Shown here: one piece after another, positions 3,386 to 36,210 of the stretch
How positions within the stretch are numbered: position 1 is the stretch's first letter
How the letters are laid out: each line of letters starts with the position of its first letter
Origin: a virus
Taxonomy: Duplodnaviria; Heunggongvirae; Uroviricota; Caudoviricetes
DNA length: 64,000 nt
Reading direction: 5' to 3' (one strand)
IMG/VR virus record: IMGVR_UViG_2595698888_000001
Coordinates: 64,001 to 128,000 of that record
Translations under genes and position numbers: made by a program
Notes under the pieces: generated by a model
Databases searched by the model: none
What the model was told of the DNA's origin: nothing
What the model saw: only the letters and a program-made list of their open reading frames with translations

Positions 3386-3409
3386 GGGATACTTCGGTAT
3401 CCCTTTTTT
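3386..3409 (+). terminator. intrinsic terminator after PIN-PhoH
   Basis: GGGATAC-TTCG-GTATCCC with cUUCGg loop, followed by a T6 run. Confidence 0.9.
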
Positions 3410-3422
3410 AATTGGAAGAACT

Positions 3423-3605
3423 ATGAAATTATCTTTTTATGCTGAAGCTGACCCACAAGTAGGTGACGGTGACATTGTTTTTTATAAAGTGATTCAGGTA
3501 AGGAAGTACTGGTTTTTAACGTTCAAGACGCAAATCGATTATGGTACAGAAAATGAAATGAAGACCCTTGCTAATAATCTTAATTTAAATCTTGGAACAA
3601 AATAA
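3423..3605 (+). CDS. small hypothetical protein
   Basis: 60-aa ORF with GGAAG RBS upstream. Confidence 0.65.
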   Translation: MKLSFYAEADPQVGDGDIVFYKVIQVRKYWFLTFKTQIDYGTENEMKTLANNLNLNLGTK

Positions 3606-3621
3606 TTTTTTATGGTATAAT
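3592..3621 (+). promoter_or_regulatory. sigma70-type extended -10 promoter
   Basis: TTGGAAC-N13-ATGGTATAAT, the same layout as at 34711, 41814 and 48515. Confidence 0.65.
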
Positions 3622-3663
3622 ATACGTAATTAATCGACAAATTAGCCTCCATTTCCGGCCTTA

Positions 3664-34710: not shown

Positions 34711-34740
34711 ATGAAACACAATTAAAAATTGTGGTATAAT
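34711..34740 (+). promoter_or_regulatory. extended -10 promoter driving the ORF-free structured region
   Basis: ATGAAAC-N13-GTGGTATAAT. Confidence 0.72.
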
Positions 34741-34741
34741 G

Positions 34742-35213
34742 TAGGGGAAGACCTGAAAAGGTTTTCCTCTAAAAACTCTGATTGATCCATAATATGGAAT
34801 AGTTTAAACCTGATCTCGTTGAAAATGTAAACAGCAGATGAGTAGTTCAATCAGTACGAGTGCAATATATTTTACCCGTTAGGAATCGGCATAGTTTGTA
34901 CCGACCACGGCAATGCGGCACTTTAAATGCGTCCTTGACATGAACGCACTAGATAGGCATTAGAGGCATACTCACCTGTTAAAAGGGAGATATTCTACGG
35001 AATATCAATAGTACTTGTTGCTGAATTAGCGAGTACTATATGCGAAGGAATGTGAAATCTTCGACCGTTGTATGCGACTGTAGTAACTGGAAACCGGACA
35101 ACCCGCCAGTGTTTGCTACAAATTTTAGATAATATAGATCCGTCCAAAATTTGAGTAAAATCTACAAATTCAGAGGTAAGACTACCACCGTCAGATATAT
35201 TCTGACTTTTTTT
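34742..35213 (+). ncRNA. candidate large structured non-coding RNA (may extend to ~35361)
   Basis: No ORF of 60 aa or more in 34711-35364, and the stretch looks more GC-rich than its flanks. At least eight helices, including GAAA- and cUACGg-capped hairpins. Terminator-like GTCAGA-TATAT-TCTGAC-T7 at 35190-35213. Confidence 0.6.
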
Positions 35214-35364
35214 CGTTCCCCTTTCGTGGGGGGATGCAAATGGATCAACAAACCCCGTCAGTATAAAAGTATTGAACGTACTTAAATAATAGAACTGAAT
35301 GTTTAATTATTCGAGTTCGACAGAACGAGAAGAATGAAACATTCTTGGCTAACGGAGTTAGACA

Positions 35365-35760: not shown

Positions 35761-36210
35761 ATGATTATTATGAGCGAACATTTTGATCCTAATGACATAC
35801 GAAGTATGATTGATTATGTAGAAACTACTGACGATACCCACGAAGATATATTAATTAAATTCGTAGAGAATAGTCTATTTCTAGAATCGCAAGCACACCA
35901 CTGGCATCTACAATGCATGTACTATTCAAAACATATGGAACTGGATGAATTTTATAAAGGTTTACCAGAATATGTTGATGAATTCATTGAAGGTTTGATG
36001 GCAGAACGTGGACCAATATTCAGTACTGGAAGTTCTTATGTATTCCAGCCATTAGAAGAAGCAATCCCTCTACTTGAGCAATATGTACAGCACTGCCACA
36101 AAATACATGAAATATTGGACAGTCTTGATGAATATGGTTCAGTTAACAAACTAGAAGATATTATTAGTTTTGTTGACAGCATTTTATACAAACTTAAAGT
36201 ACTACAATAA
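35761..36210 (+). CDS. Dps/ferritin-like four-helix protein
   Basis: QAHHWHLQ..YSKHMELDEFY..VDEFIEG ferroxidase-like pattern. TAAATA upstream. Confidence 0.72.
   Translation: MIIMSEHFDPNDIRSMIDYVETTDDTHEDILIKFVENSLFLESQAHHWHLQCMYYSKHMELDEFYKGLPEYVDEFIEGLMAERGPIFSTGSSYVFQPLEEAIPLLEQYVQHCHKIHEILDSLDEYGSVNKLEDIISFVDSILYKLKVLQ

Follow-up and report, generated by a model that had tools for sequence, protein, structure and literature searches.

Large, highly conserved and pseudoknotted RNAs are rare, and the large ornate RNAs described in the past proved to be ribozymes, RNP cores or, recently, RNA-only cages. ROOL and GOLLD each form a homo-oligomeric RNA-only cage or ring. Among other described systems, ColE1 RNA II is ~550 nt long, and put/EAR is a small two-hairpin or ~120-nt fold. 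The replication origins of phage T4 consist of a promoter and downstream sequence, the transcript of which is the primer, and plasmids bearing them replicate on infection (PMC3016281). These origins share no common sequence motif, ~100 bp suffices, and an AT-rich unwinding element lies right after the promoter (PMC3016281).

Here, we analyzed an element in a Rak2-like jumbo phage with a genome record of 358,663 bp. The window is the whole 64,000-nucleotide stretch under analysis, bases 64001-128000 of that record, and the element occupies window positions 34711-35364 on the + strand. We conclude that this locus, copy B, is almost certainly one member of a set of five paralogous genes, which encode an undescribed multidomain RNA with at least two pseudoknots. 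With the orphan RNAs ROOL, GOLLD, and OLE, often carried by phages and prophages (PMC12286853), it shares a size of ~0.5-0.8 kb, many helices, conserved junctions, pseudoknots, and carriage by phages or mobile elements. The element is ROOL/GOLLD/OLE-like in that it exceeds 400 nt, is multihelical and pseudoknotted, has conserved junctions, and is borne by phages and islands. However, neither gathering-threshold nor permissive scans match it to the covariance models of ROOL (RF03087), GOLLD (RF01998), or OLE (RF01071). It differs from these RNAs in being carried by Rak2-like jumbo phages of enterobacteria, with three to five diverged paralogues per genome that occupy conserved, widely separated positions, and in having a phage-class promoter ahead of each copy.

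A preliminary description of the locus, made from the letters alone, had proposed a large, structured noncoding RNA of possibly new class, expressed from its own promoter in a gap without ORFs. The gap is indeed devoid of ORFs longer than 50 amino acids on both strands of 34711-35364. The predicted + strand fold is more stable than that of shuffled sequence (z score of -4.25, against -2.87 for the - strand). A cmscan of the whole window against Rfam 15 returned no hits at gathering thresholds. Permissive scans (E values up to 5-10) of copy B and five family members gave weak, inconsistent matches with a best E value of ~0.7-1.3, and no family recurred between members. ARAGORN detected no tRNA and no tmRNA. 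The ARAGORN and Rfam results thus bear out the earlier failure to match the element to tRNA, tmRNA, RNase P, or intron cores, and on the same grounds we rejected tRNA, tmRNA, RNase P RNA, group I and II introns, and self-cleaving ribozymes as its identity. The lack of an Rfam family and the strong covariation described below together support the proposed uncatalogued class. We found no paper on this RNA family in a literature search of incomplete coverage, so that publication elsewhere is possible.

The same description had suggested the RNA as a ligand for an encoded TROVE/Ro-like protein. A six-frame search of the 358,663-bp genome with Pfam TROVE (PF05731) yielded no candidates, while the Deinococcus radiodurans control was detected, and the proposed partner therefore falls. 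Likewise, Y RNA and YrlA covariance models do not match the element, which is ~5 times longer than YrlA-type RNAs. Its sole likeness to the Y RNA-Ro (Rsr/TROVE) system is that of a possible phage-encoded, structured ligand for an RNA quality control protein. We also rejected homology to the ncRNAs defined by RNA-seq in the related phage PA5oct: nhmmer found no match in the 16 kb of PA5oct that hold ncRNA001 and ncRNA002, and a search of the complete PA5oct record with our covariance model found no copy.

Among public records, those most closely related to this genome are Pectobacterium phage CBB, Serratia phage BF, the Erwinia SNUABM phages, and Yersinia phage fHe-Yen9. The genes flanking the element are annotated in CBB as homologues of GAP32_163 and GAP32_164, and a homologous ORF-free gap of 0.6-0.7 kb is present in every relative that we examined. 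The element is the most conserved stretch of its neighborhood, with 89-94.5% identity between genera in the RNA part (34741-35262), compared to 68-83% in the flanking protein genes. The flanking genes escape detection by blastn in Munch and EJP2, where the RNA is still 76% identical. Five copies each are present in CBB, BF, XbC2, Munch, and XaC1, four in 121Q, and three are detectable in a 345,809-bp IMG/VR record. The carrier phages infect E. coli, Salmonella, Cronobacter, Erwinia, and Klebsiella. Three to five positioned paralogues, defined promoters, and cultivable phages set this family apart from other orphan large RNAs, and because the promoters are defined and the phages cultivable, genetics, RNA-seq, pull-downs, and cryo-EM are directly feasible.

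To evaluate the fold, we assembled 76 nonidentical members, cut out two domains, and aligned them with MAFFT without structural input. In the 3' domain (alignment A3), 92.7% of the cells at the 23 tested pairs are standard pairs, compared to 39-50% in slid controls, and 18 of the 23 pairs change on both sides. None of 500 shuffles reached the observed value for four of the five measures, while 8 of 500 did so for further pair types. The 5' domain (alignment A4, positions 34770-34926) gave a similar picture, with 93.0% standard pairs over 32 tested pairs (slid controls, 29-47%), both-side changes in 27 of the 32, and no shuffle among 500 reaching the observed values. Over both domains, compensatory changes are found in 45 of 55 pairs, and both pseudoknots pair in all 74 distinct sequences, with compensatory variants. 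The features are listed from 5' to 3' in Table 1.

Table 1. Predicted features of the element and its promoter in window coordinates
Feature	Position	Strand	Sequence or structure	Pairing and variation
Promoter	34711-34740	+	ATGAAA, 18-nt spacer, TG-extended TATAAT	10/12 matches (consensus scan)
5' terminal hairpin	34743-34770	+	AGGGGAAGACCT-GAAA-AGGTTTTCCTCT (sequence and MFE fold)	52% paired among orthologues, where MAFFT columns are misaligned
5' domain	34778-34854	+	P1 (34778-85/34847-54) encloses P1a and bulged H2	P1, both-side changes in 8/8 pairs
P1a hairpin	34786-90/34794-98	+		Both-side changes in 5/5 pairs
H2	34810-12/34835-37, 34815-16/34833-34, 34818-20/34830-32	+	Conserved loop GAAAAUGUA	Both-side changes in 7/8 pairs
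Pseudoknot 1	34842-44/34855-57	+	GUA/UAC; spans 3' strand of P1; nearly invariant GAUGAG and CGA on its flanks	100% paired (74 distinct sequences), with UA/AU/CG and AU/UA/GC types
H4	34860-63/34918-21	+	Encloses A-rich internal loop, H5', and replaceable arm; conserved strand ACGGCAAUGCGGC within 34860-34921	100% paired; double changes in 3/4 pairs
H5'	34876-79/34907-10	+	CCGU/ACGG	100% paired; double changes in 2 pairs; variants CCGA/UCGG, CCGC/GCGG
Replaceable arm	34882-34906	+		Deleted or substituted in some members
Middle domain	34928-35039	+	H5, conserved strands GAUAG...CAU and AAAGGGAG, hairpins 34989-35006 and 35008-35039	Helices 92-97% paired in 11 orthologues; double changes in 19/22 pairs
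H5 hairpin (middle domain)	34928-32/34944-48	+		Up to 5 pair types
H6	35043-47/35059-63	+	Part of 3' core (35043-35166)	
Pseudoknot 2	35067-71/35098-102	+	GUUGU/ACAAC (H9 loop)	100% paired; both-side changes in 5/5 pairs; variants GUUGC/GCAAC, GUUAC/GUAAC, GUCAU/AUGAC, CUCUG/CAGAG
H8	35079-83/35162-66	+		99.5% paired; double changes in 5/5 pairs
H9	35086-90/35106-10	+		100% paired; double changes in 4/5 pairs
H10	35112-16/35154-58	+	Bears arm with conserved loop AAUAUAGAUCCG	87.7% paired; double changes in 4/5 pairs
H11	35180-82/35190-92	+	GAC/GUC, loop UACCACC	Variants from alignments GACGA/UCGUC vs GAUGC/GCGUC
Terminator-like hairpin	35190-35206, U7 35207-13	+	GUCAGA/UCUGAC; overlaps H11	Helix 95% paired in 11 orthologues; changes G-C to G-U, A-U to G-C
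Conserved tail	35218-35262	+	C4/G6 hairpin (35218-21/35228-31), then GGGGGGAUG.AAAUG...CAACAAACCCCGUCAGUA	
AT-rich spacer and distal hairpins (35330-35361)	35263-35364	+	Ends at next gene's start codon (35365)	71-87% identity between genera, lower than upstream

Most helices drawn in the preliminary description are recovered by this analysis. The long-range helix CTGATTGA/TCAATCAG covaries, as do TCCAT/ATGGA, CGAAG/CTTCG, GATATTC/GAATATC, ATAGTACTTG/CGAGTACTAT, ACTGG/CCAGT, the terminator stem, and the C4/G4 hairpin. The hairpin at 34810-34837 is also real and covarying, though in a slightly different register than first drawn. Two proposals did not hold: GTAG at 35080-83 had been paired with 35116-19, but its true partner is CTAC at 35162-65, within H8, and the inner CGG/CCG helix is only 65% paired, its ACAAC loop pairing instead with GTTGT in pseudoknot 2. 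Pseudoknot 1 had been missed. The 5' terminal hairpin is more variable, with a different hairpin sequence at the same place in orthologues and no such hairpin in copies C and E. Long invariant single-stranded blocks occupy the junctions (GAUGAG, AACCCGU, ACGGCAAUGCGGC, GAUAG, CGACCGUUG, and GAAAC.G..CAACCCGC), a pattern typical of RNAs with a tertiary core. The AAUAUAGAUCCG-loop submotif is found on the H10 arm of paralogues B and D, but A, C, and E have it in their middle domain, indicating that peripheral modules have moved around a fixed core.

A consensus scan located one strong + strand promoter in the region, with the TG present, in agreement with the proposal of a dedicated promoter. 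It is predicted to be of the sigma70 extended -10 type, with transcription starting near 34746-34747. The ATGAAAC...TGGTATAAT promoter block lies upstream of all five copies in this genome. Genome-wide, the + strand has 33 promoters of this type and the - strand none, and they therefore represent a general phage promoter class.

The 3' end of the transcript is less uniform than its start. The GTCAGA/TCTGAC stem with its T7 run at 35190-35213, originally noted as terminator-like, was found by our scan as the one such site in the region, compared to 0.5 expected. A canonical terminator follows H11 at this fixed position in copies B, C, and D; several distant groups have it too, but copies A and E do not. 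The 3' strand of H11 doubles as the 5' strand of the terminator stem in copy B, an overlap that is absent from copies C and D. Conservation runs beyond the terminator, to at least 35262, and all five paralogues and the island copies described below have a common tail of a C-run/G-run hairpin followed by GGGGGGAUG.AAAUG...CAACAAA.C.CGUCAG. The C-run of this hairpin varies only from C to U, yielding G-U pairs, which argues for RNA-level constraint on the + strand. The comparison suggests that the terminator is a variable insert before the conserved tail. The predicted RNA is about 467-470 nt long if terminated and about 516-520 nt long if the tail is included. A length of up to about 610 nt is possible, since GAAAATTCTT and the subsequent hairpin recur further downstream of paralogues B, C, and D and in XaC1; whether the distal hairpins belong to the RNA is uncertain. 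A metagenome scan added 85 more stretches, with no transcript-sized contig among them that would hint at the RNA ends.

We searched the genome for further copies by motif search, by nhmmer, and then with a covariance model of the 3' core (R1), which identifies exactly five copies, all on the + strand, a multiplicity that the preliminary description had missed. They are located at ~35.1, 98.7 (copy B), 177.4, 261.4, and 340.6 kb, with gaps of 63.6, 78.8, 84.0, and 79.2 kb between them and 53.1 kb around the ends. For points placed randomly on a circle, a minimum gap equal to or above that observed has a probability of 0.0045 in this genome, 0.003 in Munch, 0.07 in XaC1, and 0.05 in 121Q, values that are not independent since the genomes are syntenic. 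Over-dispersion is thus a suggestive signal, with recombination that collapses nearby repeats as an alternative cause. In a phylogenetic tree, orthologues are far closer to one another than paralogues are, indicating that the five copies are old and that each has been kept at its own place.

The neighborhoods of the five copies differ. A search for a partner encoded by a shared neighboring gene found flanking proteins of unrelated families, mostly of unknown function, and we rejected this possibility. The genes on both sides of copy C are on the opposite strand, a convergent baseplate-hub gene being downstream, and the element is thus more than a leader for the gene that follows. The copies are co-oriented with most genes: the + strand carries 458 of the 515 long ORFs. 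The ~450-510 nt after the promoter have a GC content of 39-41%, compared to 35.6% for the genome, while the DNA beyond the tail is 29-32% GC in four of the five copies and 37% after copy E. Complementary 8-mers between paralogues, a weak proxy for oligomer formation, number ~62 by a hand count of the matches listed, against 56 +/- 7 in shuffled sequences; at this chance level, we rejected a hetero-oligomeric ring of the five paralogues joined through complementary loops. By-eye checks of orthologues likewise removed two long intramolecular complementarities that are not kept, one of 9 nt in copy B (34782-90/35240-48) and one of 11 nt between the 5' end and a distal hairpin in copy D.

The element is also present in integrative islands of bacteria, although rarely. 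Copies were found in 3 of 401 genomes of Enterobacteriaceae species and in 2 of 5,426 complete E. coli genomes, and in none of 72,556 plasmids. A pattern scan of genome contigs produced mostly chance matches in GC-rich genomes, with 2 of 120 stretches being real. Intact copies, tail included, reside in integrative islands of three unrelated types. One type is shared by a Buttiauxella MAG and an Enterobacteriaceae MAG and contains, in order, a tyrosine integrase, the RNA, a convergent cI-like S24 repressor, an HTH_35 protein, an unknown protein, LprI, a resolvase, and an nSTAND3 NTPase; the Buttiauxella copy additionally has AbiGi beside it. Between these two islands, the RNAs are 77% identical, with the fold fully preserved in both. 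In a third genome, the RNA neighbors two ParB-like genes and a large serine recombinase, next to rof and tilS. An island at ffs in E. coli LR-29-1 holds the RNA along with DUF4326, DUF488, and dual-OB genes. None of the island proteins has a homologue in the phage, and we accordingly rejected them as partners of the RNA. The RNA thus appears, from these gene contents, to have moved alone, with its promoter and without phage protein genes. The retention of intact copies by unrelated islands, some of which carry known defense genes, suggests an axis of phage-host or phage-satellite conflict.

Among the functions that we considered, we rank first, and hold tentatively, that of a stable, folded RNA or RNP acting in trans. 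Host RNA polymerase would transcribe the RNA rightward from the phage-wide + strand promoter class, and the RNA is assumed to accumulate during infection. The invariant junctions and the two pseudoknots may form a binding or catalytic core for a putative phage or host factor, and by analogy with other ornate large RNAs, the molecule could act as an RNP or as an RNA-only particle. Five paralogues would then supply dosage and variant peripheral arms, and an island copy could be a decoy that titrates the putative partner factor of the phage or a user of the same partner. Several results point this way. The structure is under selection, with both pseudoknots completely paired, and its invariant junctions, pseudoknots, and swappable arms form the architecture of RNAs with a tertiary core. 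The RNA outlasts its flanking genes in conservation, and no Rfam family, tRNA, or tmRNA accounts for it. It looks like a free-standing gene, equipped with a promoter, a 5' hairpin, and an intrinsic terminator of its own; copy C lies between opposite-strand genes, and no protein family is shared by the neighborhoods of the copies. It also travels alone and presumably works in foreign contexts without an adjacent phage protein gene. However, the terminator ahead of the conserved tail in copies B, C, and D sits oddly with a single stable RNA, and a purely trans-acting RNA predicts neither the over-dispersed spacing (P of 0.0045) nor the placement of all copies on one strand. The fixation of each paralogue at its own position across genera also fits a local role in cis.

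Such a role could be the control of transcription from within the nascent transcript, which we rank second and consider unlikely. The element would here act as an antiterminator that modifies the polymerase transcribing it, like HK022 put or EAR, or as a very large attenuator at which polymerase either stops at the terminator (35190-35213) or continues into the tail and on to the downstream genes. Like put/EAR, the structured RNA is promoter proximal, beginning at a constant distance from its promoter in all copies, and in copies B, C, and D it is followed by a terminator; it occurs in several copies that face the same way as the long gene arrays, one every 53-84 kb. The fixed-position terminator in copies B, C, and D and the distant groups has conserved sequence behind it, and in copy B it shares a strand with H11, although copies C and D lack this overlap and copies A and E lack a terminator there altogether. 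In two islands, the RNA reads towards and into the 3' end of the cI-like repressor gene. However, the known elements are 65-120 nt long, and ours is 4-8 times larger (~470-610 nt, ~500 nt here). Copy C faces a convergent baseplate-hub gene, 28 other promoters of the same class have no such RNA, and Rfam, including its antiterminator RNA families, gave no gathering-score match.

Third, and less probable still, the five copies could be replication origins, an alternative already raised in the preliminary description as an origin primer RNA, the structured transcript being a pre-primer with a persistent 3' RNA-DNA hybrid as in ColE1 RNA II and T4 oriF/oriG. Islands would then have captured a copy for replication by the phage replisome and perhaps for packaging. 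The element resembles these systems as a promoter-driven noncoding transcript close to the ~550 nt of ColE1 RNA II in size. It resembles the T4 origins in having several loci per genome, a phage promoter immediately upstream, and a portable unit of promoter and downstream sequence, which the islands took without any phage protein. T4 fires at least five origins early (PMC3016281), and here five evenly spread loci (P of ~0.005), each fixed at its own position, end in a C-run/G-run tail followed by AT-rich DNA in all but copy E. Yet the T4 origins are motif free and ~100 bp long, with the unwinding element directly after the promoter, whereas the element has AT-rich DNA only beyond its tail. In its place are ~500 nt of GC-rich RNA body that is homologous between loci and constrained as a pseudoknotted RNA. 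No copy resides on any of the 72,556 plasmids, and the spacing values are subject to the nonindependence and the recombination alternative noted above. Cumulative GC skew rises monotonically, without an inflection at the copies, which is uninformative as an origin signal and weak evidence against this explanation. Taken more broadly, we also consider it improbable that the copies are cis-acting landmarks, either RNA-primed origins with a ColE1-like pre-primer or polymerase-reprogramming antiterminators, that islands captured for phage-triggered switch-on, replication, or packaging.

It is highly improbable that the element is not an RNA gene at all but a set of small translated ORFs or a DNA site (a protein-binding array, or a site for recombination or packaging): although CDSs of 33-64 amino acids are annotated in the homologous gap of some records (g162 and g163 of fHe-Yen9-03, Kaldavass, and Hallingskeid), their frame, strand, and position vary between records, the longest + strand ORFs of the 76 family members are short (median, 41 amino acids) and nonconserved, indels between paralogues break the frame of the only candidate tail peptide (MQMDQQTPSV), and the double substitutions that restore pairing, the G-U-compatible changes, and the crossing of helices mark an RNA rather than DNA or a protein. 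Several of the small CDSs annotated in the homologous gaps of public records are thus probably wrong.

One hairpin of the RNA, a module whose conserved loop reads AAUAUAGAUCCG, occupies different positions among the five paralogues. Paralogues B and D have it within the H10 arm, whereas A, C, and E have it in the middle domain, so that a peripheral element has been relocated within the RNA fold. We also identified a C.CGUCAG motif at two sites in the RNA: one copy is the 3' strand of H11 (window 35183-35195), and the other terminates the tail (window 35250-35262). Munch-type members have UGUCA instead of CGUCA at both sites, and this parallel change hints at a common partner or an alternative pairing.

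The RNA gene lies behind a predicted promoter of the type TG(A/G)AAC-N16-18-TATAAT, in which a conserved ATGAAAC box replaces the -35 element. The whole phage genome contains 33 such promoters on the plus strand and none on the minus strand, and an RNA gene lies directly behind only 5 of the 33. This type appears to represent a promoter class of the phage itself, either early or middle.

In three related phages, fHe-Yen9-03, Kaldavass, and Hallingskeid, small CDSs of 33 to 64 amino acids are annotated inside the homologous gap. Neither their frame nor their strand is conserved, and they are probably mis-annotations that cover the RNA gene.

Coordinates of features associated with the RNA
Feature	Location	Strand
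Hairpin module with conserved loop, copy B	window 35120-35152	
Hairpin module with conserved loop, copy A	L281 ~3390-3440	
TG(A/G)AAC-N16-18-TATAAT promoter	window 34711-34740	+
Small CDSs in gap, fHe-Yen9-03	L001:3347-3451 and 3533-3649	
Small CDSs in gap, Kaldavass	L005:1794-2119	
Small CDSs in gap, Hallingskeid	L007:1464-1860	
Integrative island common to two MAGs	L278:5897-15658; L279:7375-15093	
E. coli LR-29-1 island at ffs, adjoining SRP RNA gene	L285:6967-15303	

The RNA is also found in bacterial islands. The integrative island common to the Buttiauxella and Enterobacteriaceae MAGs encodes an integrase, the RNA, a cI-like S24 repressor, HTH_35, an uncharacterised protein, LprI, a resolvase, and an nSTAND3 NTPase, with AbiGi additionally present in one of the two. 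In both islands, the RNA is convergent with the cI-like S24 repressor gene and reads into it. The E. coli LR-29-1 island harbors a diverged RNA copy inside a 1.4-kb unannotated gap, together with DUF4326, DUF488, and dual-OB-domain genes and a recombinase.

Among the phages, a free-standing HNH endonuclease gene immediately precedes the RNA gene in XaC1 (L010:491-1126), and in Munch (L006:1-607) one occupies the second position upstream. Such neighbors are what one would expect were homing endonucleases to target the very conserved sequence of the RNA. The second gene 3' of the RNA gene (window 35761-36210) encodes a Dps/ferritin-like "starvation-inducible DNA-binding protein" according to the annotation of relatives, and its nucleotide identity of 83-89% represents unusually high conservation for its neighborhood.
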